The position numbers were made by a program, and so were the translations under genes. The notes beneath the pieces are model-generated. The model saw only the letters and a program-made list of their open reading frames with translations, was not told the origin of the DNA and made no database searches. A DNA stretch of 64,000 nt from an uncultured bacterium (GTDB lineage: Bacteria > Actinomycetota > Acidimicrobiia > Spongiisociales > ZC4RG35), in the NCBI GenBank assembly GCA_963785075.1, contig CAWATW010000006.1, positions 356,412-420,411 of the forward strand. The letters run 5' to 3'. Below, piece by piece: positions 7,495-56,912 of this stretch (position 1 is the stretch's first letter; each line of letters begins with the position of its first letter).

Positions 7495-8496
7495 TCAGTC
7501 CGGCGGTTGGAACCGCAGCTCGGTCGCGGGGCTGCGGCCGTGAGCAAAGTCGTCGATGTTCGTCGCGGTCGTCGCTGCGATCTCCTCCAACGCATTCCGG
7601 GTGAAGAACGCCTGGTGACCGGTGACGATCACATTCGGGAATGTCAACAGCCTGCTGAACACGTCATCGTGGATGATCCGGTCAGAAAGGTCTTCGAAGA
7701 ACAGATCGGTCTCTTCCTCGTAGACGTCGAGTCCCAGGTGTCCGACCTTTCCATCCTTCAGCCCCTCGATGACGGCCGGCGTGTCGATGAGGCCACCACG
7801 ACTGGTGTTGATGATCATCACACCGTCTTTCATGACCGAGAGGGTGTGCGAATCGACGAGATGGTGGGTCTCGGGTGTCAGAGGGCAATGAAGCGTGATG
7901 ACGTCGGACTCCTCCAGCAGCCGTTCGAGATCCACGTATTCAACTCCCAGCGCCACACAGTTCGGGTTCGGCTGCACATCGAAGCCGAGGAGTCGACACC
8001 CGAACCCACGGAGAATCTGGGCGACCGTCTGACCGATCTGCCCGGTTCCGACGATGCCGACGGTACGGAGATGGAGATCGAACCCGAGAAGACCCTCGAG
8101 CGAGAAGTTTCCCTCCCGGACTCTGGCATACGCCCGATGGATCCTCCGGTCCAAGGCCAGCATCAAAGCGACCGCATGCTCGGCCACGGCATACGGGGAG
8201 TATCCCGGGACCCTGGCCACCCGGATCCCAACGTCGGCCGCGGCCTTCAGATCCACATGGTTGTAGCCGGCCGAACGCAACACGAGGAAGCGGGTTCCCC
8301 CGGCCGCCAACAGCTCGAGGACCGCCCGCGAGGAGTCATCGTTGACGAAGATGCAGACCGCCTCACACCCCGCCGCCAACCTCGCGGTGTGCACGTCGAG
8401 GCGAGCCTCGAGAAACACGGGCTCGTGCGAGTCGCCGATCGCGGCCCCCAGATGGTCGCGGTCATATCGCTTGGTACTGAACACCGCTACACGCAT
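7495..8496 (-). CDS. ldhA: D-lactate dehydrogenase (D-2-hydroxyacid dehydrogenase family)
   Basis: Lies inside ORF 7495..8640. Start moved to ATG 8496 ([12 protein letters not shown]). From memory it is colinear with E. coli LdhA ([55 protein letters not shown]). The annotated N-terminal extension is a translated DNA repeat. Confidence 0.85.
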
Positions 8497-8577
8497 CTGG
8501 GCAGGATCGGGGCTTGCTCCCGTGACCGCAAGTCGGGAGAGGGGCTTTGAGGGCTTCGCACTTCCCTTCCCGAGTGA

Positions 8578-8612
8578 CCAGTCCCCAGTCCCCAGTCCCC
8601 AGTCCCCAGTCC
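8578..8612. repeat. perfect tandem heptamer array (CCAGTCC)x5, equal to (GGGGACT)x5 on the ldhA strand
   Basis: Read directly: ccagtcc ccagtcc ccagtcc ccagtcc ccagtcc. It lies 82-116 nt upstream of the ldhA ATG. Confidence 0.95.
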
Positions 8613-8649
8613 CCGGCGACGCGAGCCACTGCCACACCATCCATCATCA

Positions 8650-8720
8650 CCTGACGCCGCCCAACCCGAACCCACCCGCCGTCAGGACGGCATGCGGGGG
8701 TCTGGGGGTCGCCCCCAGAC
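8650..8720. repeat. ~70-nt intergenic repeat unit, copy 1, ending in a perfect hairpin
   Basis: cctgacgccgccc..gtcaggacggcatgcggggGTCTGGGGGtcgCCCCCAGAC. The 9-bp stem with a 3-nt loop is at 8700..8720. Homologous to 8932..9001. Confidence 0.85.
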
Positions 8721-8828
8721 ATGGCAGTCCCGAGGGCTTCGCTGCGCTCGCGTCTCTGGTCTCCGGTCTCCAGCCGGCGGCATCGCGAACCTCGGCTTCA
8801 CCGATCATCGTGACGTGACGCCGCCCAG

Positions 8829-8898
8829 GTCATGCGTCATGCGTCGTTCGTCTTGCGTCTTGCGTCATACGTCATACGTCATGCGTCATGCGTCTCCA
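8829..8898. repeat. tandem heptamer array (GTCWTRC)x9-10
   Basis: Read directly: GTCATGC GTCATGC GTCGTTC GTCTTGC GTCTTGC GTCATAC GTCATAC GTCATGC GTCATGC GTCTCCA. Confidence 0.95.
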
Positions 8899-8931
8899 GC
8901 ACGCGACCCGCGGCTGCACGGTGCGTCGCTG

Positions 8932-9001
8932 CCTGACGCCGCCCGACCCCAACCTGGCTCCAGTCATGACGGCAGCGGGGGTTTGGGGTCGCTCCCCAGA
9001 C
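8932..9001. repeat. ~70-nt intergenic repeat unit, copy 2
   Basis: cctgacgccgccc..cagtcatgacggcagcggggGTTTGGGGtcgctCCCCAGAC. The hairpin is kept through a G-U-compatible change relative to copy 1. Confidence 0.85.
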
Positions 9002-9126
9002 GTAGTACGTCCAACGTTCTCGTACCTCTCGGGAGGGATGCACCATGCTGGGTGGCAGGGCCGAACGGCCCTGGTGCAACCCATGCGCTGCGCTGAATAT
9101 GGCATCGAGCAGCGAGGAGGCGTGCA

Positions 9127-9549
9127 GTGGTGGTGGTGGTCGGAGTCGATGAGTCCGATCACGCCGTCTATGTGGTCGAACGAGCGATGGAAGAGGCCCG
9201 GATGAGAGATGCCGAGCTGCACGTGGTCCACGTCTTCCATCCCCCAGTTCTGCCCTACATGGGTGCCCCGATCGACATGGCTGCCGTCGCCGCGGCCCAA
9301 CGCCAAGCGGTATGGGAGCGGGTCGAGCCATTGGTCGCCAAGGCGGCCACTCCGGTCGAGCGGGTGGACCTAGAGGGGTACCCGCCGGATTCTCTGGTGG
9401 ACTACTCGCAGAATGTCGGAGCCGAGCTCTTGATCGTCGGATCGAGGGGTCGTGGCGAGTTCGCTGCACTCATCCTGGGATCGACAAGCCATCGCGCCAT
9501 CCATCTAGCTCATTGCGATGTGTTGGTGGTGAAGCCGTCGCACGCTTGA
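9127..9549 (+). CDS. universal stress protein (UspA family)
   Basis: ORF track, 140 aa. GTG start with GAGGAGG upstream. VVVGVDESDH..LLIVGSRGRGEFAALILGSTSHRAIHLAHCDVLVV is a typical USP. Confidence 0.85.
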   Translation: MVVVVGVDESDHAVYVVERAMEEARMRDAELHVVHVFHPPVLPYMGAPIDMAAVAAAQRQAVWERVEPLVAKAATPVERVDLEGYPPDSLVDYSQNVGAELLIVGSRGRGEFAALILGSTSHRAIHLAHCDVLVVKPSHA

Positions 9550-9576
9550 CCGTCTCCGCACCACCGACGCGACGCC

Positions 9577-9603
9577 GAGGGCGGCCTCCAAGAGGCCGCC
9601 CTC
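9577..9603 (+). terminator. perfect 12-bp stem hairpin downstream of usp
   Basis: GAGGGCGGCCTC-caa-GAGGCCGCCCTC, followed by cggcatttcc (weak T tract), 28 nt after the usp stop. Confidence 0.55.
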
Positions 9604-9763
9604 CGGCATTTCCGAACCGCGAACCGGCTGCGGCGGCCGATTACGGTGGGTCGGACAGCGGATCCGAAGCCATGGACGGGGGCTCGGGGCCGAGACGAGC
9701 GGCCTCGATGCAACCCACCGCCGGTCTGATCAGAATGGGCCCATCGATCCGGAAGGAGACGAC

Positions 9764-10189
9764 ATGAGCGACACGGGGGCGGCACCCACAGATCACGCAG
9801 GGCTCGAAGTCATGACCCGCGACCAGTGCGACGAGATGCTGGCGGCCACATCGGTTGGCCGGATCGGGTTCCTCGCCGATGGCGACGTCACCATTCTCCC
9901 GGTCAACTATCGATTCCACGGTGGGGCCATCGTCTTTCGGACCAGCACCGGTTCGAAGCTCGAGGCGGCGGGTCGCCGCGCGGCAGTGGCCTTCGAGATC
10001 GACGGTTGGGATGACGAGACCCAGACCGGCTGGTCCGTTCTCGTGAAGGGAACGGCCGTCGAGGTCCTTTCCGACGAGGACGCAAACACCCTCTTCGACC
10101 TCGAGCTCAGGCCTTGGGCCGAGGCCGTGGAGCGACGACAGTGGGTCCGAATACGACCTGACGAGATCACCGGTCGAAAGATCAGTTGA
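9764..10189 (+). CDS. pyridoxamine 5'-phosphate oxidase-like (PPOX/Pyridox_ox_2) family protein
   Basis: ORF track, 141 aa. VGRIGFLADGDVTILPVNYRFHGGAIVFRTSTGSKL..GWSVLVKGTAVEV is a split-barrel flavin/deazaflavin-binding family pattern. Confidence 0.7.
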   Translation: MSDTGAAPTDHAGLEVMTRDQCDEMLAATSVGRIGFLADGDVTILPVNYRFHGGAIVFRTSTGSKLEAAGRRAAVAFEIDGWDDETQTGWSVLVKGTAVEVLSDEDANTLFDLELRPWAEAVERRQWVRIRPDEITGRKIS

Positions 10190-10275
10190 TCTTTCGATGG
10201 CGATGAACTCTGGCGGGATCGTGCAGCCACCACAATACGATCCGGAGCTCTGACCGCAATGAAGGACGCAAGATC

Positions 10276-12903
10276 GTGAGTATTTCCTGGGTACGTGACT
10301 TCTCGGAGGGCGACGGAACTCAACAGGACCGCCTCGGAGGAAAGGGTGCCGGACTCGCCGAAATGACACGAATGGGCTTGGCCGTGCCACCGGGCTTCAC
10401 CGTGACCACCGACGCCTGTCGACATGTCATGCACCACGGTGGGATGCCCGACGACCTGTGGGATCAGGTCGATCAGGCGATGACCCGGTTGGAACAGCGG
10501 ATGGAGCGCACGTTCGGCAGCGGCCCGAACCCGCTGCTCGTATCCGTCCGGTCGGGTGCCTCGGTCTCCATGCCAGGAATGATGGACACCGTCCTCAATC
10601 TCGGGATCAACAATGAGGTCCTGCCGGCGCTGATCGACTGGTCGGGCGATTCCCACTTCGCCCACGACGCCTACCGACGATTCCTCCAGATGTACTCGGA
10701 CGTCGTGCTCGGGATCGACGAGCACCCGTTCCAGGACACGCTGTCCGACCTCCGCCGTCGACGCGGCGTCGTCGATGACTCGAAGCTGACGGCCGACGAC
10801 CTGGCCGAGGCGGTCGACCGCTTTCGGAAGCTCATCGTGGAAGCGGGGCACATGGTGCCGGAGGATCCCCGGGAACAACTCCATTCCGCCATCGGCGCGG
10901 TGTTCAATTCATGGAACAACCCACGCGCAATCGCCTATCGCAGGATCAACCGCATCCCGGATGACCTCGGCACCGCCGCCAACGTTCAGACGATGGTGTT
11001 CGGCGACCTGGGCGACAACTCCGGGACCGGCGTCTGCTTCACCCGTGACCCTGCAACCGGGGAGAAGATCCCGTTCGGCGACTACCTGCCGCGGGCCCAG
11101 GGCGAAGACGTGGTCGCCGGTATCCGCAACACCCTCTCCCTCGAGGATCTCGCAGAGCTCCACCCGGAGGTCCACGCCGAGTTGCTCTCTGTGATGGACG
11201 ACCTCGAACGGCATACGACCGACATGGCCGACATCGAGTTCACCGTCGAACGGGGCCGGCTGTGGATCCTCCAGACGCGATCCGGCAAGAGGACAGCCGC
11301 CGCTGCGGTGCGGGCCGCCGTCGAAATGGAGCGGGAAGGCCTGATCGAACGAGAGACCGCAGTGATGCGTGTCGATCCGGCTCAGCTGGAACAGCTCGAG
11401 CGGCCGAGGATCGACGATGCCGCTCGGGGCGCCGTCGTCGCCACCGGGGTAGCCGCCTCCCCAGGCGCCGCCCAGGGCGAAGCGGTCTTCGATGCCGATC
11501 GTGCCGTCGAGGCGAGGGCGGCCGGGCGTCGGGTCGTTCTGGTGCGGCAGGAGACCACGCCCGACGACATCCACGGGATGGACGCCGCCGACGGGATCCT
11601 CACGAGTCAAGGCGGCAAGACGAGCCACGCCGCGGTCGTAGCCCGAGGAATGGGCAAGCCGGCCGTCACTGGAGTCGCCGACCTCGCGGTCGACACCAAA
11701 CGCGGCATCGCCCGCACCAGCACCGCGGAGTTCGCCGAAGGTGACGAGATCACAATCGATGGCACCACCGGCGAGGTCTACCTGGGTCTCCTTCCCCTCA
11801 TCGAGCCCAAAGAGACTGCAGAGCTGCACGATCTTCTCACATGGGCCAACGAGATTCGGACGCTGGGTGTGCGCGCCAACGCCGACACACCGGAGGATGC
11901 CGTCAAGGCACGTGCGTACGGCGCCGAAGGCATCGGACTGGCCCGGACCGAGCACATGTTCATGGGGGACCGTCTCGCTATCGTCCAGACCATCATCCTC
12001 GCCGACAACGACGAGGAGAGCAGAGAGGCCCTGACCGAGCTGAAGTCCCTCCAGACCGCCGACTTCGCCGGCATCCTCGAGGCCATGGACGGCCTGCCCG
12101 TCGTCGTGCGACTGCTCGACCCCCCGCTCCACGAATTCCTGCCCTCGCTCCTCGACCTGGAACACCAGATGGTCGACCGGGTTCGAGCCCGCGTATCGGC
12201 GGACGATCTCGTGAAGACCGCCGCCAAGGTCGCAAGATGGCAAGAGGACAACCCCATGCTCGGACTCCGCGGTGTGCGACTCGGCCTCATGATGGAGCAT
12301 CTCTACCTGATGCAGGCGGAGGCGGCGGTGGACGCGGTCACGATCCGCAAGGAGGCCGGCGGCGACCCCCATCTCGAGATCATGATCCCCCTCGTTTCCA
12401 CAGTGCAGGAACTGAGGAGGATGCGCGACATGATCGAAGGCGTCATCCGAGACAAGGTGGCGGCCACGGGGATCGGGCTGGAGATCCCGATCGGGACGAT
12501 GATCGAACTTCCACGGGCGGCGCTGACCGCCGGGGAGATTGCAGGGGCCGCGGAGTTCTTCTCGTTCGGGACGAACGATCTGACCCAGATGACCTTTGGC
12601 TTGAGCCGGGACGACGCCGAGGCACTCTTCCTCCGTGACTACCTCGAACAGAGGATCCTCACGTTCGATCCGTTCCAAACCCTCGACGTCGAAGGAGTCG
12701 GACGACTCATGCGACTCGCCAATGCGGAAGGTCGGGCAGCGAACCCCGATTTGACCGTCGGGGTGTGCGGCGAGCACGGAGGCGATCCCGATTCGATCGC
12801 GTTCTGCCGCGAGATCGGGCTCGACTACGTGTCGTGTTCTCCGCCCCGGGTTCATGTGGCTCGACTGGCAGCCGCCCAGGCCGAGATCGCCCAGCGCAGC
12901 TGA
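10276..12903 (+). CDS. ppdK: pyruvate, phosphate dikinase
   Basis: ORF track, 875 aa (GTG start). ATP-grasp N-terminus (GGKGAGLAEMTRMGLAVPPGFTVT), phospho-His swivel (GILTSQGGKTSHAAVVARGMGKP) and PEP-utilising C-terminus (FSFGTNDLTQMTFG). Confidence 0.92.
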   Translation: MSISWVRDFSEGDGTQQDRLGGKGAGLAEMTRMGLAVPPGFTVTTDACRHVMHHGGMPDDLWDQVDQAMTRLEQRMERTFGSGPNPLLVSVRSGASVSMPGMMDTVLNLGINNEVLPALIDWSGDSHFAHDAYRRFLQMYSDVVLGIDEHPFQDTLSDLRRRRGVVDDSKLTADDLAEAVDRFRKLIVEAGHMVPEDPREQLHSAIGAVFNSWNNPRAIAYRRINRIPDDLGTAANVQTMVFGDLGDNSGTGVCFTRDPATGEKIPFGDYLPRAQGEDVVAGIRNTLSLEDLAELHPEVHAELLSVMDDLERHTTDMADIEFTVERGRLWILQTRSGKRTAAAAVRAAVEMEREGLIERETAVMRVDPAQLEQLERPRIDDAARGAVVATGVAASPGAAQGEAVFDADRAVEARAAGRRVVLVRQETTPDDIHGMDAADGILTSQGGKTSHAAVVARGMGKPAVTGVADLAVDTKRGIARTSTAEFAEGDEITIDGTTGEVYLGLLPLIEPKETAELHDLLTWANEIRTLGVRANADTPEDAVKARAYGAEGIGLARTEHMFMGDRLAIVQTIILADNDEESREALTELKSLQTADFAGILEAMDGLPVVVRLLDPPLHEFLPSLLDLEHQMVDRVRARVSADDLVKTAAKVARWQEDNPMLGLRGVRLGLMMEHLYLMQAEAAVDAVTIRKEAGGDPHLEIMIPLVSTVQELRRMRDMIEGVIRDKVAATGIGLEIPIGTMIELPRAALTAGEIAGAAEFFSFGTNDLTQMTFGLSRDDAEALFLRDYLEQRILTFDPFQTLDVEGVGRLMRLANAEGRAANPDLTVGVCGEHGGDPDSIAFCREIGLDYVSCSPPRVHVARLAAAQAEIAQRS

Positions 12904-45364: not shown

Positions 45365-46528
45365 CCCGGGAGCGGGTCCTCACCGCCTATCGCTCGGCCC
45401 TCCAGGCCGTCGATCCCGAGGCTGCCGTCGCCCGAGCGGTGCGGGATCTGGAAAGCGAGCGGGTATGGGTGGCTGCCGTCGGCAAGGCGGCGCCGGCGAT
45501 GGTCCGGGGCGCGGCGTCCGCTCTCGGCGAGGCGATGCGCGGTTTCCTGGCGGTCTCCGACCACGTCGAGCCGACCGCTGCCAACGGATCGGTGTTCGTG
45601 GGAGGACACCCGTTTCCCGACGAACGATCGGAACGAGCCGGACGGGCGTTGTTGTCGTTCGTCGGCTCGATCCCGCCGGACGACCTGCTGCTCGTGCTCG
45701 TCTCCGGCGGCGGCTCAGCCCTCGTGGAGGTCCCGGTCGAGGGCGTCGCCGTCGAGGACGTGGCCAGGCTCACGGACCGGCTCATGCACGTGGGCACCCC
45801 CATCGAGGAGATCAACCTGGTGCGAAGACACCTGTCTCGCATCAAGAACGGCGGCCTGCTGCGCGCAACCACTGCGACCCGAGCGGTGACGCTCGTGGTG
45901 TCCGACGTGATCGACGCCGGACCGGAGGTGGTCGCGTCCGGTCCCACACTCGTCGACGGATCGTCGGTCGACGACGCCGTCGAAGTGATCCGATCGCGGC
46001 TCGGTGTCGACTTTCCAGTTCGTCCCGTGGGCCCGACAGGCCCGCTCCCGGAGCATCGGGCCGAAGTGGTGGCCGACTGTTCGATGGCCGCTCTGGCGGC
46101 GGCCGACGAACTCGGCGCCGAGGTGTGGACCGCCGCCCTGCGCGGCGAGGCATCCGAGCAGGCCAGACGGATGGTGGCCGCCGGCGAGAAGCGTCCGCTG
46201 GTGGCGACGGGCGAGACCACCGTGACGGTGCGAGGTGCGGGCCTCGGTGGTCGCAATCAGGAGGCGGCGCTCGCCGCAGCGATCGCGCTGGACGGAGAGA
46301 CCGGATGGTTCGGTGCGCTCGGCACCGACGGCATCGACGGTCCCACCGAGGCGGCCGGCGCCATCGTCGACGGGAACTCGGCGGATCGGATGCGCCGCCT
46401 GGGTGTCGACCCCTACCGCGCCCTCGAGTCCAACGACTCGCACGGGGCGTTGGCGGCTGCGCGGCGATCTCGTCGTCACCGGGCCCTCCGGCACCAACGT
46501 CGGCGATCTGTGGATCAGCCTTCCCTGA
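45361..46528 (+). pseudogene. glycerate 2-kinase/hydroxypyruvate reductase (MOFRL family) with a 1-nt frameshift near 46462 affecting the last ~22 codons
   Basis: ATG 45361 (ATGA overlap with the MFS stop). Contains LVLVSGGGSAL and GGRNQE. After ..SNDSHGALAAA the frame runs into RRSRRHRALRHQRRR. The +1 frame instead reads GDLVVTGPSGTNVGDLWISLP-stop (46463..46528), the canonical family C-terminus. Confidence 0.75.
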
Positions 46529-46534
46529 GAACGA

Positions 46535-47263
46535 TCAGGGCGCAAGCGTGGACAGATCGTCGACGGTGATGGTGGCTCCGGCCTCCGCCAGTGCTGCCGA
46601 CGAGTCGGTGCGATCGACGCCGACGACGACGGCGAAACCGCCGGCCGCACCTGCCGCCACTCCGCTGACCGCGTCCTCGAAGACAACCGTGCGACCCGGC
46701 GCTGCGCCGAGCTCTGCGGCGGCATCGAGGAAGGTGTCGGGAGCCGGCTTCCCGGGAAGTGATCGTTGCCGGGCGACGACCCCGTCCATCACGAAGCGAA
46801 ATCGGTCGGACAGATCCGCTGCAGCCAGCACCGGCTTGGCGTTGGCGCTGGACGAAACCACCGCGAGGCCGATCTCCGTGGCCGCCAAGGCGTCGAGCAG
46901 CCCGACTGCGTCGGGGTACGGCTCCACACCCTCATCCTCCAGCACCCGGTTGAACATGGCGTTCTTCAGGTTGCCGAGGGCACACACCGTGTCGTGACCC
47001 GGCGCATCCCCTGGGTCACCCTCGGGGAGCACGATATTGCGGGAGGCGAGGAAGTCCCTGACCCCGTCGTAGCGCGGCTTGCCGTCGACGTGTGCCAGGT
47101 AATCGGCCTCGACGAACGGCACGAAGGCGGGACCGCTCCGAGCGGCGAGGAACTCGTCGAACGATCGCTTCCAAGCAGATTCGTGCACCCGTGCCGTCGG
47201 AGTCAGGACGCCGTCGAGATCGAACAAAACTGCGTCGATGGCCTGCCAGTCGATGAGGCTCAT
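46535..47263 (-). CDS. HAD-superfamily hydrolase, beta-phosphoglucomutase-like
   Basis: ORF track, 242 aa. Contains AVLFDLDGVLT, VVSSSAN, GKPAPD and FEDAVSGV. Confidence 0.82.
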   Translation of the reverse strand: MSLIDWQAIDAVLFDLDGVLTPTARVHESAWKRSFDEFLAARSGPAFVPFVEADYLAHVDGKPRYDGVRDFLASRNIVLPEGDPGDAPGHDTVCALGNLKNAMFNRVLEDEGVEPYPDAVGLLDALAATEIGLAVVSSSANAKPVLAAADLSDRFRFVMDGVVARQRSLPGKPAPDTFLDAAAELGAAPGRTVVFEDAVSGVAAGAAGGFAVVVGVDRTDSSAALAEAGATITVDDLSTLAP

Positions 47264-47303
47264 GCCCGCACCCTGGCACAGAGGAGGTCATCAGCCAACC
47301 CCA

Positions 47304-48083
47304 TCATCGATGGGCCACCACGAACCGGTCCCGCCCGGTGAGGTCTCGACGAACCGAGACAGAGGCGAATGCCCGCTCGAACAACACCGTCACCTCGGGA
47401 CCCTGCTCATCGCCGATCTCGCAGATCACCGTCCCACCGGGCGCGAGCCAGCGGACCGCCTCGAAGGCGATGCGATCGAGCACCTCGAGTCCGGTCGGGC
47501 CGGACACGAGCGCCATCCGCGGCTCATCCTTCACGTCGGGAGGCAGGTCATCGAACTCCGCATCCGTGACGTACGGCGGATTGGACACGATGAGGTCCAG
47601 CAGCCCGGACAGCTCCGGCGGCAGCGCCTCGAACAGATCCCCTTGGAGGACCTCGATGTCCGACCGTGAGCGAGCGACGTTGAGCCGAGCGACGTCAACG
47701 GCGTCGGGCGAGAGGTCGGTTGCGATCACCCGCGCAGCGGGCCAGGTGGACTTGCAGGCGATCGCCAGCGCGCCAGATCCGGTGCACAGGTCGACCACGA
47801 CAGCCGGGTCGATCACCTCCGCCACCGCCAGCTCCCAGAGCTGCTCCGTCTCGGGACGTGGGATCAGCACGCGTTCGTCGACCACGAGTTCGAAAGGGCC
47901 GAACGCAGCGGTTCCCTCGAGGTACTGCAGTGGCGCGCCCGCCAACCTCCGGCGAAGGAGATCGGCGAACAGGCGGTCGTCGCCTCCGCTCGCCGCCCTC
48001 AGGCGACGTTCCTCATGGGCCGGGAGGACGGGGTCGGACACAACGGCAGTGTGGCACCTTCGACACGATTCAACATGCCACAA
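47304..48083 (-). CDS. prmC: release-factor glutamine N5-methyltransferase (PrmC/HemK-like, short N-terminal domain)
   Basis: ORF track, 259 aa (GTG 48041 is a plausible alternative start). Contains PLQYLEG, VLIPRPETE, DLCTGSGALA and IVSNPPYV. Confidence 0.8.
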   Translation of the reverse strand: MWHVESCRRCHTAVVSDPVLPAHEERRLRAASGGDDRLFADLLRRRLAGAPLQYLEGTAAFGPFELVVDERVLIPRPETEQLWELAVAEVIDPAVVVDLCTGSGALAIACKSTWPAARVIATDLSPDAVDVARLNVARSRSDIEVLQGDLFEALPPELSGLLDLIVSNPPYVTDAEFDDLPPDVKDEPRMALVSGPTGLEVLDRIAFEAVRWLAPGGTVICEIGDEQGPEVTVLFERAFASVSVRRDLTGRDRFVVAHR

Positions 48084-48172
48084 ACGGCCCAGGACGGGTG
48101 CGCTGACTGGCGTCGTGCCCTATCGGGTCGGAGCCTTCGGCCCGTAGCGTGGGGAACGAAGGAGGTGTCGCC

Positions 48173-49159
48173 ATGCAACCGATCGCAGTGGCGATCGTTC
48201 ACGGGATCGAGATCGAAGACCCCGACTTCGCCACAACCCCGACCAAGTTGCTGAAGGAGGCGTTCGCCGATCAGTTCGGACCGCACGGTCCCGACCCGGA
48301 TCAGGCACTGATCGTGGAACCGATCGCCTGGGCCGCCGAGGCACAGGCACGACAGCAGCAGCTCTTCGATCACGTCTTCGCCACCGATTCGCACGAGTTC
48401 TTCGAGGACCGCATCTCCCGGATCATCACCAAGCTGAACGCCGGGTCGACCCGCCACCTCGTGCCGCTGATCCTGTCCATGTCCGACCGGAAGGTTCCGG
48501 GGATGAAAGAGCTTCATTGGCCGACCGCCCGGTGGCTCATGATGCATTTCGTTGGTGACGTCATCGCATATGACCGAACCGGGGACGGCGCCAACTATCA
48601 CGCGGTACACGGGACCTTCGCAAGCGGTCTCGAATCACTCGCCCGCCGGGCCGGCCCGGAGGCTCCGCTGTGCGTGATCGCACACTCGTTCGGCACGGTG
48701 CTCGCCACCGACTACTTCTACGACCAGCAACAATGGCGCCGGCGGCTGGCCGCCGAAACTGTCGACGCCGCACGTGGGAAGTCTGCACTGGCCCGCGGCC
48801 ACACGTTGGCCTGGCTCTACACGATGGGAAGCCCGCTCGCCCTCTGGAGCCTGCGCTATGCGTCCGACTCCCGACAGATGAGCAAGCCGATCAGGTTTCC
48901 CGGACAACGCATCGAGACAGACCGTCCCGATCTGAACACCGAGTGGGTGAACATCTACGAGAAGGACGACATCATCGCATACCCGCTCCGCGGGCTCAGC
49001 GAGGCGTACGCGGCGACGGTCGACGAGGATCGCGCAGTCGACGTGTCCGGCCCCGTGTCGACGACCCCGCTGACTCACATCTTCTACTGGTCGGACCGCA
49101 AGGTGATCGATCCGATCGGAGCAAGACTCGCTCAGGGGTGGCGGCTGCTCAACGAGTGA
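48173..49159 (+). CDS. putative alpha/beta-fold serine hydrolase, family not recognised
   Basis: Lies inside ORF 48149..49159. ATG 48173 with AAGGAGG 7 nt upstream. Contains VAIVHGI (oxyanion HG), VIAHSFGT (GxSxG-like) and later EKDDIIAYP and LTHIFYW (possible Asp/His). Confidence 0.6.
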   Translation: MQPIAVAIVHGIEIEDPDFATTPTKLLKEAFADQFGPHGPDPDQALIVEPIAWAAEAQARQQQLFDHVFATDSHEFFEDRISRIITKLNAGSTRHLVPLILSMSDRKVPGMKELHWPTARWLMMHFVGDVIAYDRTGDGANYHAVHGTFASGLESLARRAGPEAPLCVIAHSFGTVLATDYFYDQQQWRRRLAAETVDAARGKSALARGHTLAWLYTMGSPLALWSLRYASDSRQMSKPIRFPGQRIETDRPDLNTEWVNIYEKDDIIAYPLRGLSEAYAATVDEDRAVDVSGPVSTTPLTHIFYWSDRKVIDPIGARLAQGWRLLNE

Positions 49160-49459
49160 TGTCACGAAGCACCCAAGTCACCGAAGGAGTCTTGCCTTGA
49201 TGGGATGGAGAGAGGTTTTGAGCGTGTAGCTCGAAACTGCTGACGACCAAACGAGAGGGAGAAGCGCGGACGCGTTCCGCGCTGCCGCTTTCGTAGTAGT
49301 TCAACTGGCCCCCTGGGCGCGTCGACCGTGGCCTCGACAAGTGATGCAGCCCCATTCGATCTGTGCCTATCCGAACCGGCTGAGAGTGGGACGTTCCGCC
49401 CGGGATCTCGCACAGAGGGCGTGCAGAGTCACGGTCCGCGAGGTGGTTATCGTTCGTCG

Positions 49460-50218
49460 ATGGCTGATGTACCGCCGATTCTCGAGTTCGACCCGGACCG
49501 AGCGGCGCTGATCGATCCTCGATCGGAGCCGCCGATTCCCGGGGCCCCCGTTGCTGCTGTTGCGTGCTTCTTCCCGTCGCTGATCGCCGAGCTGTCCGAG
49601 ACTGGTCAGGTGCTACTTCAGTTGCCCAGCCTGGGAGAGCTGTGGAAGATCGACTACGACGGAGAGCCACTTGCCGTGTTCTACCCCGGCCAGGGGGCTT
49701 CGCTGGCGGCCGTCACCGTCGAGCGTGTTCTAGCAGCGGGCATCGAAGCAGTCGTTGCCTGCGGAGGTGCTGGAGCTGTGGTGCCCGACTTGTCGCTCGG
49801 GCACGTGATCGTCGTCGATTCCGCGATCCGCGACGAAGGCACGTCGTACCACTACATCGCTCCATCACGAGAGATCTCAACCCCAAAGAAGGTTGTTGCC
49901 GTCCTGCGCGACGTTGCGCAGAAATCCGGGTTGGCGTACACAGTCGGCAAGACCTGGACCACCGACGGGTTCTTCCGGGAGACGCCCGGGCGAATCCAGC
50001 GACGACGTGACGAGGGTTGCATCGTCGTGGAAGCAGAGGCGGCCGCCTTGCTCGCGGTTGGACAGTTCCGAGGGGCACCAATCGGGCAGTACCTATTCGC
50101 TGGTGACGATGTCAGCGGAGAGGTGAGGGACGACCGGGGCTGGCGCACAGCCGACGAGCTTCACATGGCGCTGTTCAACCTGGCTGCTCGATCGGCCCTC
50201 CGTCTGGTGGCCGGCTGA
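49460..50218 (+). CDS. nucleoside phosphorylase (PNP_UDP_1 family, uridine-phosphorylase-like)
   Basis: Lies inside ORF 49328..50218. Start at ATG 49460 (MADVPPILEF). Contains CGGAGAV, AIRDEGTSYHY, TWTTDGFFRET and VVEAEAAAL. Confidence 0.75.
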   Translation: MADVPPILEFDPDRAALIDPRSEPPIPGAPVAAVACFFPSLIAELSETGQVLLQLPSLGELWKIDYDGEPLAVFYPGQGASLAAVTVERVLAAGIEAVVACGGAGAVVPDLSLGHVIVVDSAIRDEGTSYHYIAPSREISTPKKVVAVLRDVAQKSGLAYTVGKTWTTDGFFRETPGRIQRRRDEGCIVVEAEAAALLAVGQFRGAPIGQYLFAGDDVSGEVRDDRGWRTADELHMALFNLAARSALRLVAG

Positions 50219-50403
50219 CGTCAGCACCCGATCGACACTGCCATCTGGGTGACATGAGTCTTCCGGTTCGGGGGGCGGAGAGGCGGCAAGATTCGCTAGA
50301 GGCAATCTCGAGGATGACCGACGACGCGGAGAGGTCGGCATGGCGGCCGTGACAGACCACGAAACCGTGCGACACGCCAACGCTCACGCGGGGCGGCAGA
50401 TGA

Positions 50404-50747
50404 TCACTGCCGCAGCGACGCGTCAGACCTTGCTTCGGCTCTCACCAGGATGGACCCGACCGGGACCACCAACTGCAAGAGCGTCAACTCGACACGGCGC
50501 TCGAGCGTGACCGTCACCGATTGCCCGTCACCCGCAACCACGATCTGCGGCGAGGCGTCCAGATCACCGCCGTTGGGCTGAGCATCGATGAGTCGAAGCG
50601 CCAGACCACTCGCCAACGCCGGGTCGAGCACCACCCTGCCCTCGTTTCGGAAGGTTTCCGCGTCCACGCCCGACGCACCTGCTACTGCGGCGGCATCGGC
50701 GATCCCCGCCAAGTCACGATGTGCGCCGAGAGCACTCCAAAGGTCCA
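50404..50747. repeat. 344-bp direct repeat, copy A (partner 56478..56821)
   Basis: Hand alignment: 19 mismatches in 344 nt, including one perfectly identical run of about 110 nt. Confidence 0.9.
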
Positions 50748-50895
50748 GGCCGAAGGGACCAAAGGGCACCGTGCCCTCCAGATACTGCAATGGCTCGCCG
50801 GCCATTCGGCGCTTCTCCATCTCCACCAAGACAGAGTCATCACCGCCGGACGCTTCTCGCAATCGACGCCTCTCGTGTGCTGGGAGCTCGGCCAT
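50404..50895 (-). CDS. chimeric ORF: PrmC-like N-terminal 47 codons fused to a second copy of the TadG-like C-terminal domain
   Basis: ORF track, 163 aa. MAELPAHERRRLREASGGDD..PLQYLEGTVPFGPFGL resembles the PrmC N-terminus. The remaining 113 aa differ at only 2 residues from the C-terminus of 56478..56912. Confidence 0.55.
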   Translation of the reverse strand: MAELPAHERRRLREASGGDDSVLVEMEKRRMAGEPLQYLEGTVPFGPFGLDLWSALGAHRDLAGIADAAAVAGASGVDAETFRNEGRVVLDPALASGLALRLIDAQPNGGDLDASPQIVVAGDGQSVTVTLERRVELTLLQLVVPVGSILVRAEARSDASLRQ

Positions 50896-50984
50896 CGCTT
50901 GATTCTGCCACCGTCATCCGGCAGTCCGCTTCCCGGGCCGGACCGGCGAGGCCAGCCCTCCGCCCGGTCGCCGTCACGCAATCG

Positions 50985-52748
50985 TCAGCGGAGCGGGAAG
51001 AAGATCGGGATTGCGATGGCGGCCGCTACGACCGTCACGACCGTGAGCGGTGCACCAAGACGGGTGAAATCCGAGAAGCGATATCCGCCCATGCCGTAGA
51101 CGATGGTGTTGGTCTGGTAGCCGATCGGGGTGAGGAAGGAACACGACGCTCCCACGACGATCGCAACCGCCATCGCTCGCATGTTCAGACCCTGAGACAC
51201 CGCTGTGGCTTGCGCCACCGGGAAGACCAGGATGGCAGCGGCATTGTTGGAGAGAAGTTCTGTGGCAGCCATCGTCGCTACCAGGATGCCAACCAGCACG
51301 GCCACATCTCCGAAGCCGCTGAACATCGACACCATCCCCGACGCGAGCACGGCGTCGAGCCCACTGACATCGACAGCCGCACCCAATCCGAAGCTCAGCG
51401 CCACCAGCAATACCGTGTTCAGGTCGATGGCTTCGCGAGCCTCAGCCACCGACAACACGCCCGTTCCGATCACTGCGAGGGCCGCTACCAGCGCGGCCTG
51501 GGGGAGATCAACGAGGCTGGTGGCGGAGGCGATGATGAGGGCGGCAGTCACCGCACGGACGATCCATGCCTTCGTGCGTCGGACCGGGACCGAGCCGTCG
51601 AGCGGCGAAACCAGGAGGAGGCCCTCACGGTCGTGCCACCGCCTGATGAAGCCTCGATCGGAGACCAGCATCAAGACATCGCCGAGCTTGAGGGTCACGT
51701 CACCGAGCTTTCCGCCCAGCCGCTCCCCCGCCCGGTGGATGGCCAGGACGGCCGCTCCAAACCGGTTGCGAAAGTCGGCGTCGCGCAGATTGGTGCCCAG
51801 CAAACCTGCTCCTACGACCGCCTCGTAATACCGCTGGCCTCCGGCTCCGAAGTGGGGCTCCTCCAGGGGCAAGAGACCCCGGAGCGACTGAAGATCCACT
51901 ACGCGGGCGACGTCTCCCACGAAGGCGAGCCGGTCGCCCGCTCTGAGGATCTGCTCGGGCGCCACTGGTGCGAGGACCGCCTCATCACGTTCGAGCTGAG
52001 CCAGAAACACTCCCGCGAGGTGACGCAGGCCCGCATCCTCCACGGTCTTCCCCTCGAGGGCACCACCCGCCTCGACCTCCATCTCGACGATGAACTCTCT
52101 CATCGAGTCCATCCGGTCGCGCTTCGGGTGATGCTCTCGCTGCAACCAAGGGGCCACCACAAGCAGTACGCCGACTCCGACTGAAGCCACGAGCATCCCG
52201 ACCCCACTGAACTCGAAGACACCAAAGGGAGCCATGCCGGCGTCGCTCATGAGCCCGTTGACGGTGAGGTTCGTCGAGGTTCCGAGCACCGTGATCACCC
52301 CGCCGAAGACGGTCGCGAAGCTGAGCGGCATCAGGAAGCGGGAGACCGGCCGTCCGGTTCGTCGGCACCACGAGTCGATCCGAGGGGCCAACATCGCCAC
52401 CAACGGTGTATTGGCGATGAACGCAGATGCTGCCGCAGCCGGAACACAGATCCGGGCGAGTTGGCGCCGCTCTCCACCTTCTGCCGCGCCGCTGCCGAGA
52501 AGCCTGTCGGTCAGGCCCGTCAATGCTCCGGTGGCTTCGACCGCGGCGGCCAGCACGTAGAGCGCAGCGATCGTGATCGGCGCCGAGTTGGCGAGCCCTC
52601 CGAAGGCCTCCTGGAAATCGATCACGCCTGCGAGATGAAGAACCGTCACAGCCACCAGCGTCACGGCTGCCGCGTGAAACCTCTCACTGACGAACGCAGC
52701 GATTGCGACGGACAGGACGGCAGCCGTCAACCAGGCGTCCGGGGTCAC
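50985..52748 (-). CDS. SLC13/DASS-family anion permease with two internal TrkA-C domains
   Basis: ORF track, 587 aa. Multi-pass membrane protein with central soluble repeats (ALEGKTVEDAGLRH..GDRLAFVGD and LLGTNLRDADFRNRFGAAVLAIHR..GDVLMLVSD). Confidence 0.8.
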   Translation of the reverse strand: MTPDAWLTAAVLSVAIAAFVSERFHAAAVTLVAVTVLHLAGVIDFQEAFGGLANSAPITIAALYVLAAAVEATGALTGLTDRLLGSGAAEGGERRQLARICVPAAAASAFIANTPLVAMLAPRIDSWCRRTGRPVSRFLMPLSFATVFGGVITVLGTSTNLTVNGLMSDAGMAPFGVFEFSGVGMLVASVGVGVLLVVAPWLQREHHPKRDRMDSMREFIVEMEVEAGGALEGKTVEDAGLRHLAGVFLAQLERDEAVLAPVAPEQILRAGDRLAFVGDVARVVDLQSLRGLLPLEEPHFGAGGQRYYEAVVGAGLLGTNLRDADFRNRFGAAVLAIHRAGERLGGKLGDVTLKLGDVLMLVSDRGFIRRWHDREGLLLVSPLDGSVPVRRTKAWIVRAVTAALIIASATSLVDLPQAALVAALAVIGTGVLSVAEAREAIDLNTVLLVALSFGLGAAVDVSGLDAVLASGMVSMFSGFGDVAVLVGILVATMAATELLSNNAAAILVFPVAQATAVSQGLNMRAMAVAIVVGASCSFLTPIGYQTNTIVYGMGGYRFSDFTRLGAPLTVVTVVAAAIAIPIFFPLR

Positions 52749-53377
52749 GCAGGCGCCCCACCCCGCGCAGCCCTACGGCGCAAAACTCCCAGGACCTCTC
52801 GACCGACCGGCAGCAATGAGAGCGCCACGATCGCCATCGCAGCCACCTCGACGTTGTCGCGTACAAGCGGCAGACTGCCCAACCACCACCCCACGATTGG
52901 TAGACCGACGGCCCACAGGATGGCGCCGATGACGTTGGCCCTGGTGAACGCAGGGCGAGACATCCCGGCGATGCCTGCTGCCAGCGGAGCGAACGTCCGG
53001 ACGATTGGCACGAAGCGAGCGAGCACGACGCCACGCCGGCCATACGCCGTGACAAAACGGCTGGCGCGCTCGAAACGATCGCGGGTGAAGAAGCGCCCGT
53101 CGGGACGGTTCAGGAATCTACGCCCGGCGCGACGACCGATCGAATACCCGACCTGATCACCGGCGACAGCCGCCGCGAACGCGGCGAGGATCACAACGAT
53201 CAAGGGCGGCATGACCTGACCACCCGCAGGGGACGCAAGGAATCCGGCGATGAACAATAGGGAGTCGCCCGGAAGGAACAGTCCGACGAGAAGACCGGAC
53301 TCTACGAAGACGATCGCCATCAACATCAGCAAACCTCCGGCGGACAGCAGAGATTCGGGGTCCAGCAAGGACATCAC
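52745..53377 (-). CDS. DedA/VTT-domain membrane protein
   Basis: ORF track, 210 aa. Contains FLPGDSLLFIAG, GYSIGRRAG and ARFVPIVRTFAPLAAG. Confidence 0.82.
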   Translation of the reverse strand: MMSLLDPESLLSAGGLLMLMAIVFVESGLLVGLFLPGDSLLFIAGFLASPAGGQVMPPLIVVILAAFAAAVAGDQVGYSIGRRAGRRFLNRPDGRFFTRDRFERASRFVTAYGRRGVVLARFVPIVRTFAPLAAGIAGMSRPAFTRANVIGAILWAVGLPIVGWWLGSLPLVRDNVEVAAMAIVALSLLPVGREVLGVLRRRAARGGAPA

Positions 53378-53516
53378 GCGTCGGTCCTCCAGCGTTTTCG
53401 GTCACTCATAATATCTCTTTCGGTCTACTGAATCTAGGAGGCACCGGGGGCGAGTGACGCCTCGGTTGGAGAAAGGGGCCGGGGCGCCATCGGGGATCTC
53501 CGGTCAGGGATGGAGC

Positions 53517-55877
53517 TCAGCGGCCGGCGATACTGCCCGCCTCGGCCAGATGAAACGGAACGCTGGTCACCGCAACGCCCGGCTCGGAAGCCAAGACCCC
53601 CTTTATGGCCAGCCCCGTCTGGTTGTGGAGGAACTGCGCCACCCTGCCCGGTACGACGAACTCGGGCACCACCACATTGATCACCGTGCCGGGAAGCGCT
53701 CGACGCCGACGCTCCCTGAGATACTTCACGAGGGGGCGAACAATGCCCCGATACGGGGAAGCCACGACCTCGAGCGCCACTTCACCGCCCGGAACCGCCC
53801 ATGAGTCGATGGAACCATCCCACTCGCGCAAGAGCCTCTCCCGCTGGCGATCTTCCACGTCGACGTGGACGGCGGTGAGCGGCAGCCCGAGCCCGGAGGC
53901 ATACGCCAGGGCTTCTAGCACGGGTCTGGTCAAGTCGGAGATCAGGACGATGGTCTCGACGTGGCGCACGGGAACAGGCGTGAGACCCGCGGGCCGGCGA
54001 CGACGAAGCAGCGTGAGATCCGTGACAGCCACTCTCGGCTCGAACAGCAGCCTGGCCTTGATGGCGAGAGAACGCGGATGACGTGCGAGCTCTGCCATCG
54101 TCCGCCGCCGGAATCGTTCCGACATGACCACGGTGATCCTGTGCTCAGGGTGGGCATCACGGGTTCGGCGGACGTGGTCGACGATACGTCCCGTCACCGA
54201 TCGTCGTTGACCCTGAAGCAACTCGATGGGACGATCAGGGTGAAGGCTTTCCCACGCATACAGGAGGTCGTCGGAACCCTCCTCTTCGGCATGGACGAAC
54301 GCCAAGGAATCGGCGGGGATCCGCTTGGCGAACTCCAATGCGCGCTCGGTCGCCTGGTCGGAATGGTTGACCAAGACAATCACCAGATTCGATCGCGAGT
54401 GCACCTCGGACGGCATCGCCTTGAGTTGTGCCGCCACGCTCTCGTAGTGACGCCGCATGGCCATCATGACCGCCACGATCAGCGGCACCGAGGCAATCAC
54501 GATCCACGCGCCATGCGTGAACTTCACCACGGCTACCACCACCAGGACCACGCCCGTCGTAGCGGAGCCGATCGCGTTCAAGATCACCGATCGTCTCCAG
54601 CCTGCATCTCGCGCCTTCAGCCAGTGCCGCACCATGCCGGCCTGGCTGAGTGTGAAGCTGGTGAACACGCCCACCACGTAGAGCTGGATGAGCCTGGAGA
54701 CCTGTGCGTCGAAAACAACCAATAGGGCCGAAGCGAGCAAAGCCAGCACGATGACACCGTTCGAAAAAACGAGGCGGTCGCCGCGATTGCGAAACTGTCG
54801 TGGCATCAAACGGTGGTCGGCGAGTATCGCCGACAGTCGCGGGAAGTCCTGATACGCCGTGTTGGCCGCCAGCACCAGGATCCCCGCAGTGAACGCCTGG
54901 AGGAGCCAGAATCCCACGCCCCCGTTGAACGCCGCTCGCCCGATCTGAGAGATCACGGTGCCGAACTGCTCGATGTTGCCTTCGCTCGGCTGCACGCCAA
55001 ACGCCCGGGCCAGCGTCGAGATACCGAAGAACATCGTGATCGAGATCGCACCCATCACCGTGAGCGTGGTGACGGCGTTCTTGCTCTTGGGTTCGCGGAA
55101 TGCCTGCACACCGTTGGCGATTGCTTCCACACCGGTGAGCGCGGTGGAGCCCGACGCAAAGGCCCGCAGGATCAGAAAGAGACCTGCGGCGCCGAGCTCA
55201 AGTTCGATCTCGGCACCCGAGCTGACCGCGATCGGACAATCGCCGTCGAAACACTCCACGAATCCCACCATGAGCATCACGAAGACCGTGCCGACGAAGA
55301 GATAGGTCGGGATTGCGAAAATGGTCGACGCTTCTTTCACGCCGCGCAGGTTCGCCATGGTCAGCAGCATGACAAATCCCAGTGCCAGCCAGACCCGCGC
55401 CGTGACCAGGGCCGGCACCGCGGACGTGATGGCGGCGACACCTGCAGCCACCGACACCGACACCGTGAGGGTGTAGTCCACCAGCAGCGCCGAGGCAGCC
55501 ACCGTCCCCGCTCCAACGCCGAGGTTCTCCGACGCAACGATGAATGCGCCGCCCCCACTGGGGTAGGCCCGGATGGTTTGCCGGTACGACACGATCACGA
55601 TCGCCAGCAGGATTCCGACAGCTGCCGTGATCGGTCCGATGAGAGAGAAGGCGGACGCCCCGGCCAGCGACAAGACGAGCATGGCCTCCTCGGTTGCATA
55701 GGCGACCGAAGAAAGCGGATCGGATGCGAAGACGGGGAGGGCCAGACGCTTGGCGAGAAGCTGATGTTCCGCCTCGTCACTGGCGATGGGCCGGCCAATG
55801 ACCGTACTCTTCAGCCGTGACAACGATCCGCCCGATACTCCGCTCGCCCTGGGCGAGCCCCCAGCCCGGTAGCTCAT
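53517..55877 (-). CDS. APC-superfamily permease with a ~300-aa cytoplasmic C-terminal extension
   Basis: Lies inside ORF 53517..56414. Start moved to ATG 55877 (MSYRAGGSP). Contains LLAKRLALPVFASDPLSSVAYATEE and 12 predicted TM segments, followed by a soluble tail. Confidence 0.8.
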   Translation of the reverse strand: MSYRAGGSPRASGVSGGSLSRLKSTVIGRPIASDEAEHQLLAKRLALPVFASDPLSSVAYATEEAMLVLSLAGASAFSLIGPITAAVGILLAIVIVSYRQTIRAYPSGGGAFIVASENLGVGAGTVAASALLVDYTLTVSVSVAAGVAAITSAVPALVTARVWLALGFVMLLTMANLRGVKEASTIFAIPTYLFVGTVFVMLMVGFVECFDGDCPIAVSSGAEIELELGAAGLFLILRAFASGSTALTGVEAIANGVQAFREPKSKNAVTTLTVMGAISITMFFGISTLARAFGVQPSEGNIEQFGTVISQIGRAAFNGGVGFWLLQAFTAGILVLAANTAYQDFPRLSAILADHRLMPRQFRNRGDRLVFSNGVIVLALLASALLVVFDAQVSRLIQLYVVGVFTSFTLSQAGMVRHWLKARDAGWRRSVILNAIGSATTGVVLVVVAVVKFTHGAWIVIASVPLIVAVMMAMRRHYESVAAQLKAMPSEVHSRSNLVIVLVNHSDQATERALEFAKRIPADSLAFVHAEEEGSDDLLYAWESLHPDRPIELLQGQRRSVTGRIVDHVRRTRDAHPEHRITVVMSERFRRRTMAELARHPRSLAIKARLLFEPRVAVTDLTLLRRRRPAGLTPVPVRHVETIVLISDLTRPVLEALAYASGLGLPLTAVHVDVEDRQRERLLREWDGSIDSWAVPGGEVALEVVASPYRGIVRPLVKYLRERRRRALPGTVINVVVPEFVVPGRVAQFLHNQTGLAIKGVLASEPGVAVTSVPFHLAEAGSIAGR

Positions 55878-55928
55878 TCTCAGAAAGTATATCCTTACTG
55901 GACGTCCGTCAAGTTGTATGCTCCTGTC

Positions 55929-56462
55929 ATGGCACGCGGTCCTAGTCGACGGCAACTCATTCTCGATACGGCGCGCGCGGCGTTCGCCGAGCGGGGCTAC
56001 GACGGCACCAGTGTCGGAGAGATCGCCGGTTCGATCGGTGTATCCAAGTCGGCAGTGAGCTTTCATTTCCCCTCGAAGGAAGACCTGTTGGTGGCTTTGG
56101 TCGAGCCGTTCTTCGCGGAGATGGATGAGCTCTTCGATCCTCAGCCGTCCCCCTCGTGGCCCGACGGAGTGCTGGAGCTGGCCGGCGACTACTTCGATGT
56201 GTTGATCCGGCACCATGACATTGCGGTGTGGATCGATGCCGACAGATCGGTCCAGGTGCGCTACGAAACACAGGTGAGCGCCCTCTTCAGTCGAATGGCC
56301 GATGCAATCACCGGACCCGATCCCGATCCCGCCGCTCATGTCCGGGCTCTCGCAGCGGTCGGCGGCCTGTGGCGACCGCTCCGACTGTTGGACGATGCCG
56401 CCCTCGGCGAGCATCGATCCGAACTGCTGGAAGCGGCATTGGTCAGCTACGCGCCGCTGTGA
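55929..56462 (+). CDS. TetR-family transcriptional regulator
   Basis: Lies inside ORF 55914..56462 (TTG). ATG 55929 is preferred. HTH FAERGYDGTSVGEIAGSIGVSKSAVSFHFPSKEDLL. Divergent from the APC permease. Confidence 0.8.
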   Translation: MARGPSRRQLILDTARAAFAERGYDGTSVGEIAGSIGVSKSAVSFHFPSKEDLLVALVEPFFAEMDELFDPQPSPSWPDGVLELAGDYFDVLIRHHDIAVWIDADRSVQVRYETQVSALFSRMADAITGPDPDPAAHVRALAAVGGLWRPLRLLDDAALGEHRSELLEAALVSYAPL

Positions 56463-56477
56463 TCCTGGATGTCCAGC

Positions 56478-56821
56478 TCACTGCCTGAGTGACGCGTCGG
56501 AGCGGGCTTCGGCGCTCACCAGAATCGACCCGACCGGGACCACCAGCCGCAAGAGCGTCAACTCGACGCGGCGTTCGAGCGTGACCGTCACCGATTGCCC
56601 GTCACCGGCAACCACGATCTGCGGTGAGGCGTCCAGATCACCGCCGTTGGGCTGAGCATCGATGAGTCGAAGCGCCAGACCACTCGCCAACGCCGGGTCG
56701 AGCACCACCCTGCCCTCGTTTCGGAAGGTTTCCGCGTCCACGCCCGACGCACCGGCTACTGCGGCGGCATCGGCGATCCCCGCCAAGTCACGATGTGCCC
56801 CGAGAGCACTCCACAGGTCCA
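56478..56821. repeat. 344-bp direct repeat, copy B (partner 50404..50747)
   Basis: See copy A. This copy lies inside the intact tadG-like gene. Confidence 0.9.
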
Positions 56822-56912
56822 AGCTGATTCCCCCCACCATCAACAACGTGATCGCAAGCGCCAGGGTCCACAGAGTCGTGCTACCCCGCTCGTCGCGGTG
56901 CAGCCAACGCAT
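56478..56912 (-). CDS. TadG/TadE-like pseudopilin-type Flp-pilus assembly protein
   Basis: Lies inside ORF 56478..57113. ATG 56912 shares 1 nt with the upstream stop (TGATG). N-terminal ERGSTTLWTLALAITLLMVGGISLD (TadG-like N-terminus). Confidence 0.7.
   Translation of the reverse strand: MRWLHRDERGSTTLWTLALAITLLMVGGISLDLWSALGAHRDLAGIADAAAVAGASGVDAETFRNEGRVVLDPALASGLALRLIDAQPNGGDLDASPQIVVAGDGQSVTVTLERRVELTLLRLVVPVGSILVSAEARSDASLRQ

Follow-up and report, generated by a model that had tools for sequence, protein, structure and literature searches.

Between a tadG-like gene and prmC, and on the same strand as both, lies an open reading frame of 163 codons that begins as prmC and ends as tadG, and the question raised by this locus is whether such a chimera is a gene in its own right or the residue of a recombination event. 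Our analysis of the window, meaning the whole 64,000-nt stretch of DNA, favors the second answer: we consider it likely that the chimeric ORF is a junction scar, a fusion of gene fragments formed at a transfer hotspot, and we infer that its product is probably a non-functional by-product. Taken broadly enough to include a variant that starts from a tandem duplication, the scar reading is one that we hold with considerable confidence. The features on which the argument rests are collected in Table 1.

Table 1. Features of the tadG-prmC interval, in window coordinates
Feature	Position	Strand	Description
Cargo module B and flank	46900..50299	mixed	phosphorylase, 336-aa gene, prmC, 5' half of HAD hydrolase gene
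Resident prmC	47304-48083	-	module B
336-aa gene (X336)	48149-49159	+	module B
PNP/UDP-family phosphorylase	ORF 49328-50218	+	module B
Native tadG downstream flank	50300..50403	-	colinear with L001 and L003 (blastn)
Chimeric ORF	50404..50895	-	163 aa from ATG 50895
tadG 3' end, copy 2	50404..50747	-	114 codons plus stop; contiguous with native downstream flank
Illegitimate joint	50745..50747	-	microhomology TGG common to prmC alleles (CTGGTGG) and tadG (TTGGACC)
prmC'-derived segment	50748..50895	-	start codon and first 49 codons of a divergent prmC allele; linked to transporter cassette
Cargo module A	50896..56477	mixed	SLC13/CitMHS, DedA/VTT, amino-acid permease, TetR
SLC13/CitMHS permease	50985-52748	-	module A
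DedA/VTT	52745-53377	-	module A
Amino-acid permease with C-terminal extension	53517-about 55850	-	module A
TetR regulator	55914-56462	+	module A
Resident TadG-related gene	56478..56912	-	144 aa, PF13400; its 3' part holds repeat copy 1 (56478-56821)
Cluster of 7 synonymous changes derived on resident tadG	56486..56505	-	directly adjoins cassette

The original prediction described the ORF as a PrmC N-terminal stub fused in frame to the C-terminal 114 codons of TadG, and this architecture was confirmed. The N-terminal 47 codons matched the resident PrmC at 32 of 47 residues (tblastn E=3e-16 within the window) and represent about two-thirds of the PrmC N-terminal domain. Over residues 50-163, identity was 95-98% with the resident TadG C-terminal domain and 40-73% with those of relatives; homology to the C-terminal globular domain was also evident in an alignment with the resident TadG, at 95% identity over 119 residues, and 62 homologues in a protein search covered the TadG-derived part. 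The predicted loss of the N-terminal transmembrane segment was likewise borne out, with tadG homology beginning at Leu30, the hydrophobic N-terminal helix absent and no membrane helix in the product. The ORF is intact, with neither stops nor frameshifts across its 163 codons and the ATG kept. The public gene call covers 133 aa of it, starting from an internal ATG at 50805, before which a GGAGA motif, at a distance of 8-14 nt, is a plausible ribosome-binding site; no obvious Shine-Dalgarno sequence was seen at the ATG at 50895. Consensus promoters and terminators were not found in a scan of 50150-51050, and an Rfam scan of the whole window returned one tRNA only, far from the chimera. The locus lies outside the tad operon, 6 kb away, with four unrelated genes on both strands in between.

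Family tests assigned the two resident genes to known families and the chimera to none. The resident prmC matched NCBIfam TIGR03534 (RF_mod_PrmC) at 224.5 bits (cutoff 199.1); the chimera, set against the whole-protein model of TIGR03534 and the rest of NCBIfam, matched nothing. With just 49 PrmC N-terminal codons present it has no SAM-dependent methyltransferase domain, and the NPPY motif (SNPPYV), located in the resident PrmC far downstream of the cut point, is absent from it. The resident TadG-like gene matched Pfam PF13400 at 24.1 (cutoff 22.3) over residues 77-123 of its long ORF; no Pfam match was obtained for the chimera, in which the N-terminal helix required by PF13400 was not found. 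The original prediction had also called for a structural model of the repeat-encoded domain. In an AF2 model of the chimera built with 43 TadG homologues in the alignment, this domain folded confidently, with residues 47-158 at pLDDT >90 forming a long helix, two short helices and a three-stranded sheet. The PrmC-derived residues 1-46, a stretch with no alignment depth, had a pLDDT of 50-60 and no secondary structure, and this part of the chimera is predicted to be disordered. A Foldseek search of the model against the PDB gave no match below E 0.3 (best E 0.33), revealing no structural family for the TadG C-domain.

One alternative takes the fusion to be a functional gene encoding a new cytoplasmic, soluble TadG head domain, translated from the prmC' start, with both copies of the repeat under purifying selection. 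Its frame is open and provided with start codons, and residues 47-158 are predicted to fold as in full-length relatives, the cut falling where pilins are usually truncated for solubility; but a product with no membrane helix or signal would be in the wrong compartment for a pilus protein, and it would carry a partial PrmC stub that is predicted to be disordered. Its rarity also counts against a functional gene. Among 5.8 billion proteins no second one covered both halves, making the chimera a singleton; the protein search recovered only TadG-type proteins covering the C-terminal ~72%, together with the 133-aa gene call from the window itself, and a degenerate pattern of the junction gave 0 matches in JGI metagenomes.

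The case for selection on the chimera was originally made from the repeat that forms its 3' part, and here the observations were reproduced, while the conclusion drawn from them is not the reading that we prefer. As had been reported, positions 50404-50747 are a direct repeat of 56478-56821, ungapped and at an offset of 6074, and a codon-by-codon comparison agreed on 19 nucleotide differences in 344 nt (5.5%), located in 18 codons, of which two alter the protein (CAG/CGG, Q/R, and AGA/AGC, R/S). Homology is bounded by the stop codon and by 50747/50748; at 50748 the chimera has the C of prmC where all tadG sequences have T, and this mismatch is counted with the prmC-derived part. A formal dN/dS calculation, which had also been proposed, gave a dN of 0.012, a dS of 0.206 and an omega of 0.06 between the copies (Nei-Gojobori, NG86), a strong synonymous bias within the range of the orthologue comparisons made here (0.012-0.18). 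The probability of two or fewer nonsynonymous changes among 19 is about 2e-5 even with only the fragment copy neutral. Taken pairwise, this omega speaks for a functional chimera; its place among the orthologue values speaks for the scar.

Polarisation of the 19 differences, with L001 and L002 plus L003 (three tadG loci described below) as outgroups, located most of them on the other copy. Eleven changes were derived on the resident tadG, all 11 of them synonymous, and five on the fragment, three synonymous and two nonsynonymous; the remaining three were ambiguous, falling at sites polymorphic among the outgroups. Changes on the functional resident tadG are uninformative about the fragment, and the five to eight that can be placed on the fragment branch include both nonsynonymous ones, 2/5 versus 0/11 on the resident branch (Fisher P=0.08, by our own arithmetic), a trend towards relaxation that weighs against a functional chimera. 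A fragment branch with 2/5 (at most 2/8) nonsynonymous changes deviates from neutrality at P=0.13 to 0.007, depending on the ambiguous sites. The claim that the bias shows both copies to have been maintained as coding sequence is thus no longer the preferred reading: 11 of the 16 polarisable changes are on the resident copy and both nonsynonymous changes on the fragment, divergence between alleles suffices as a simpler source of the bias, and the fragment carries the native tadG flank. Most likely, on these polarised counts, the synonymous bias reflects the divergence of functional tadG alleles before the fusion.

The differences were also unevenly spread along the repeat. A breakpoint scan of the 19 sites indicated mosaicism (P=0.0005), the copy-to-copy dS being 0.125 for the first 255 nt and 0.49 for the last 87 nt. 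Of the resident-derived changes, seven fall within the final 34 nt of the resident tadG and four within the other 310 nt (Fisher P=1.2e-5), and at this cluster the fragment copy is identical to all three outgroups. From this distribution, the end of the resident tadG is probably a cassette-linked foreign tadG tail. The first 255 nt contain seven differences (2.7%), seven synonymous and none nonsynonymous (dN 0), a pattern that would fit the import of an allele or patchy conversion, and also constraint on both copies; under an in-place origin with a neutral fragment its probability is about 0.005 (computed for 6 sites), which is a point in favor of a functional chimera. This segment and the intact frame are the sole hints that the ORF at the seam may be a young selected gene born of an illegitimate joint, acting for example by titrating a Tad assembly partner, and we regard that idea as doubtful. 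Weighing these points together with the architecture, we judge a functional chimeric gene to be unlikely; if it were true, the locus would be a case in which the birth of a gene from a recombination joint is dated.

Gene order in relatives, a comparison suggested by the original prediction, offered a view of the site as it is elsewhere in this Acidimicrobiia lineage, with tadG, which closes the tad pilus operon, and prmC-HAD as conserved flanks around different cargo in four relatives. The closest TadG (P0002) is encoded on L001, a 469-kb contig on which a 328-aa gene, prmC and a HAD hydrolase gene come immediately after tadG. By blastn, L001 3051-10435 matched window 63868-56478; L001 10092-10542, consisting of the tadG 3' end and 107 nt of downstream flank, matched 50747-50300; and L001 10634-13327 matched 49226-46534. 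On a second relative, the 1-kb contig L003, a complete tadG runs into this flank and then into the phosphorylase gene, of which the 3' end is present (L003 343-1056 corresponds to window 50747-50030). Both contigs are empty sites, that of L003 including the phosphorylase. The native downstream flank therefore adjoins the fragment copy, not the copy inside the intact tadG, and since it is the fragment that bears this flank, 50748-56477 is extra sequence between two tadG 3' ends. Module A was absent between tadG and its flank in L001, L002, L003 and L011.

Other relatives carried other genes at the same position. On L002, tadG is followed by a CMAS-type methyltransferase gene and then by the start of prmC. 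On L011, from an Acidimicrobiia MAG with ~72% nucleotide identity, 2.5 kb of other genes (an ATPase, a 169-aa ORF and a 176-aa gene) separate tadG from prmC-HAD; this locus came from a profile search of genome contigs with a TadG alignment, which yielded at least five loci, L011 being the useful one among the matches listed. A more distant relative, L004, again has different genes after tadG.

Several further observations were made at these sites. The methyltransferase gene of L002 (10493-11900) is split over several frames, through either long-read indel errors or decay of a cargo gene. A perfect 20-bp palindrome at L001 10413-10459 has the stop codon of tadG in its loop (RNA fold -53 kcal/mol, z=-6); of this palindrome the inner 7 bp alone occur in the fragment copy of the window, where fold prediction placed a hairpin spanning the stop codon (50393-50413), and in L003, and none in the resident copy. 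The palindrome looks like a quasi-palindrome perfected by template switching, and it stands where L001 lacks the phosphorylase gene. Downstream, at L001 13327-14431, ~1.1 kb with a PemK-family toxin gene lies between the HAD hydrolase gene and a MOFRL/DUF4147 gene and is absent from the window (46528-46534).

On the gene orders described, we read the tadG-prmC interval as a transfer hotspot with conserved flanks and variable cargo without mobile elements, and the flanking genes carried signs of exchange consistent with this reading. Across the whole tad operon L001 and L002 are 89% identical, and over the last 2.4 kb (8000-10437), up to the tadG stop, they are near-identical, after which their cargo is unrelated; this near-identity suggests that a recombination tract of recent date stops precisely at the end of the tadG gene. 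On the other side of the cargo, the N-terminal 47 codons of prmC are only 62% identical in nucleotide sequence between L001 and L002, and the four alleles compared (window/L001, L002, L011 and the chimera) are mutually 55-63% identical. The divergence of these first ~47 codons (window 47886-48026) was seen even between genomes that are otherwise ~90% identical. By these comparisons the 5' end of prmC travels with the cargo and belongs to the exchangeable part of the hotspot. That the PrmC part of the chimera is far more diverged than the TadG part had been remarked on at the outset, correctly so: the stub has only 61% nucleotide identity to the resident prmC (39% divergence), against 5.5% divergence for the tadG copies. 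Such a value is normal for this segment, and the seemingly older divergence of the PrmC part is explained by prmC 5' alleles being about 60% identical even between genomes with identical tadG 3' ends.

Synonymous divergence from L001 varied sharply along the window, with a dS of 0.08-0.09 for X336 and prmC and of 0.3-0.6 for the tad genes. For the HAD hydrolase gene it was 0.18 in the 5' half and 0.41 in the 3' half, and a break in mismatch density was located near 46900, inside the gene. These shifts within the HAD gene indicate that recombination tracts end in the flanking genes, and the low values across 46900-49226 (X336 to prmC) suggest a recent exchange of that block with an L001-like lineage. 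The tadG fragment had a dS to L001 of 0.25, versus 0.08 for the X336-prmC block, so more than one event is recorded at this locus.

Two other histories were tried and set aside. The difference in dS between the fragment and the X336-prmC block is more than one import of 46900-50747, from a donor resembling L001, would explain. Campbell-type integration of a circle from a distant donor conflicts with the junction-proximal 255 nt being as close to the resident copy as they are.

GC and GC3 did not discriminate cargo from flanks, and Pfam and NCBIfam scans of the cargo genes of the window found no integrase, recombinase, transposase or excisionase in 50748-56477. This bears directly on another explanation, in which a site-specific integrative element targeted the 3' end of tadG and supplied a replacement for it, the 344-nt repeats being its attL and attR. 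Direct repeats do flank the 5.7-kb insert, and the target gene is intact with a new 3' end provided by the insert; but besides the missing recombination genes, the insert terminates on one side in a truncated housekeeping gene, and the repeat, which stops at an illegitimate joint, greatly exceeds the usual length of att cores, leaving us to consider such an element highly improbable. The amino-acid permease has PF13520 at residues 46-446 followed by a ~330-residue C-terminal extension without a Pfam or NCBIfam match, and its 965-aa mechanical ORF overlaps the TetR gene, placing the true start downstream. The 336-aa protein is conserved in L001, where it is 328 aa long, and belongs to no Pfam or NCBIfam family.

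Searches for the source of module A were made in the contexts of five relatives (L007-L010, L016-L019), in which no donor with module A beside a full prmC' or tadG' was found. The closest SLC13/CitMHS protein to that of module A was 74% identical and lay in another context; a DedA-CitMHS pair was seen once among the donor-search contexts, and tadG and prmC were never nearby. As no donor with module A beside a full-length prmC' was recovered, the two-module history given below is reconstructed rather than observed.

Under the scar reading that we prefer, ordinary turnover at the hotspot would consist of homologous recombination in the flanks that swaps the cargo along with the terminal bases of tadG and the ~50 initial codons of prmC, in agreement with reports that hotspot turnover normally proceeds by double homologous recombination in the flanks (PMC5635113, 2017). 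In the window, module A holds a probable foreign tadG tail, the TetR, amino-acid permease, DedA and SLC13/CitMHS genes and the prmC' 5' end, and module B comprises tadG from codon 30 to the stop, the native flank, the phosphorylase and 336-aa genes and the full prmC. We infer that the two were then joined in tandem instead of one replacing the other, an addition and not a replacement, through an illegitimate crossover at TGG between prmC' codon 49 and tadG codon 30. The two tadG 3' ends would have diverged synonymously in separate lineages, each within a functional tadG, before being brought together. In an alignment of the joint with three prmC alleles and tadG, the sequence was of the prmC type to the C at 50748 and then of the tadG type, the 3-nt TGG being shared and no longer stretch in common; the joint is in frame (a chance of 1/3) and the prmC' ATG is retained. 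By itself a 3-nt microhomology is weak evidence and could be due to chance. The most economical mechanism may be homology-facilitated illegitimate recombination (HFIR), in which incoming DNA is anchored by homology at one end and joined by microhomology at the other; as the work of 2002 is summarised in PMC6382021, HFIR allows the integration of 3- to 10-bp segments, which we ourselves read as joints forming at microhomologies of 3-10 bp. The candidate homologous anchor is the low-dS block 46900-49226, though the dS of the tadG fragment to the same reference is 0.25.

The same joint is exactly what would be expected from a tandem duplication of an ancestral segment from tadG codon 30 to prmC codon 49, followed by replacement of cargo and flanking alleles: the 5' end of prmC is joined to the 3' end of tadG, on the same strand and between the parent genes. 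Relative to L001, 15 derived sites are common to both copies, whose first 255 nt differ by just 2.7%. But the two cargo halves have no genes in common, and with the prmC stub 39% diverged and the tadG copies 5.5%, at least two further replacements would be needed. We find this order of events improbable, and it would still leave a scar and not a selected gene.

The joint could also be an artefact of assembly, a chimeric read or an error in the graph having connected two co-occurring strains with different cargo. The 806-kb source contig evidently comes from a metagenome assembly, the joint has been seen once only, and relatives with alternative cargo do exist. A joint sharing just 3 nt, however, offers no overlap or repeat to mislead an assembler, the 344-nt copies are 6 kb apart and 5.5% different, and one would not expect a read that is chimeric by chance to connect, in matching orientation, the two genes at the borders of one hotspot. 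We therefore think an artefact very unlikely, and return to a scar formed by joining two modules as the likely origin of the chimera. This result has a more general implication for the interpretation of partial gene copies: a partial copy that has a low dN/dS relative to a nearby gene is not thereby shown to be functional if recombination can have united different functional alleles. As a hotspot without mobile elements, the locus is moreover small and clean: the turnover of cargo reaches into both flanking genes, over ~30 nt at the end of tadG and ~50 codons at the start of prmC, and an event of addition rather than replacement would have left the fragments of both flanks fused.

When compared to known systems, the chimera shares its C-terminal domain with the TadE/TadG-like pseudopilins of Flp/Tad pili (PF13400; NCBI 'pilus assembly protein TadG-related'), but it is missing the hydrophobic N-terminal helix that defines and anchors these proteins and it is encoded outside the tad operon. 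The arrangement resembles the att repeats of islands and prophages in that the target gene is kept intact by a substitute 3' end and the displaced native 3' end is found at the far border, and differs from them in having no integrase, a 344-nt repeat that is 5.5% diverged, and a far border fused to a fragment of another housekeeping gene. As in HFIR (as summarised in PMC6382021), a 3-nt microhomology joint is found beside homologous exchange, and foreign DNA has been acquired without an element-encoded recombinase; HFIR was defined experimentally in naturally transformable bacteria, whereas competence, the position of the anchor and the direction of transfer are here deduced from the sequence. 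There is also a likeness to hotspots without mobile elements (PMC5635113), with which the locus shares conserved flanks, cargo that differs in every relative examined, no integrase, mosaic divergence and sharp shifts of dS in the flanks, and from which it is set apart by two modules standing in tandem with a fused fragment of both flank genes between them.
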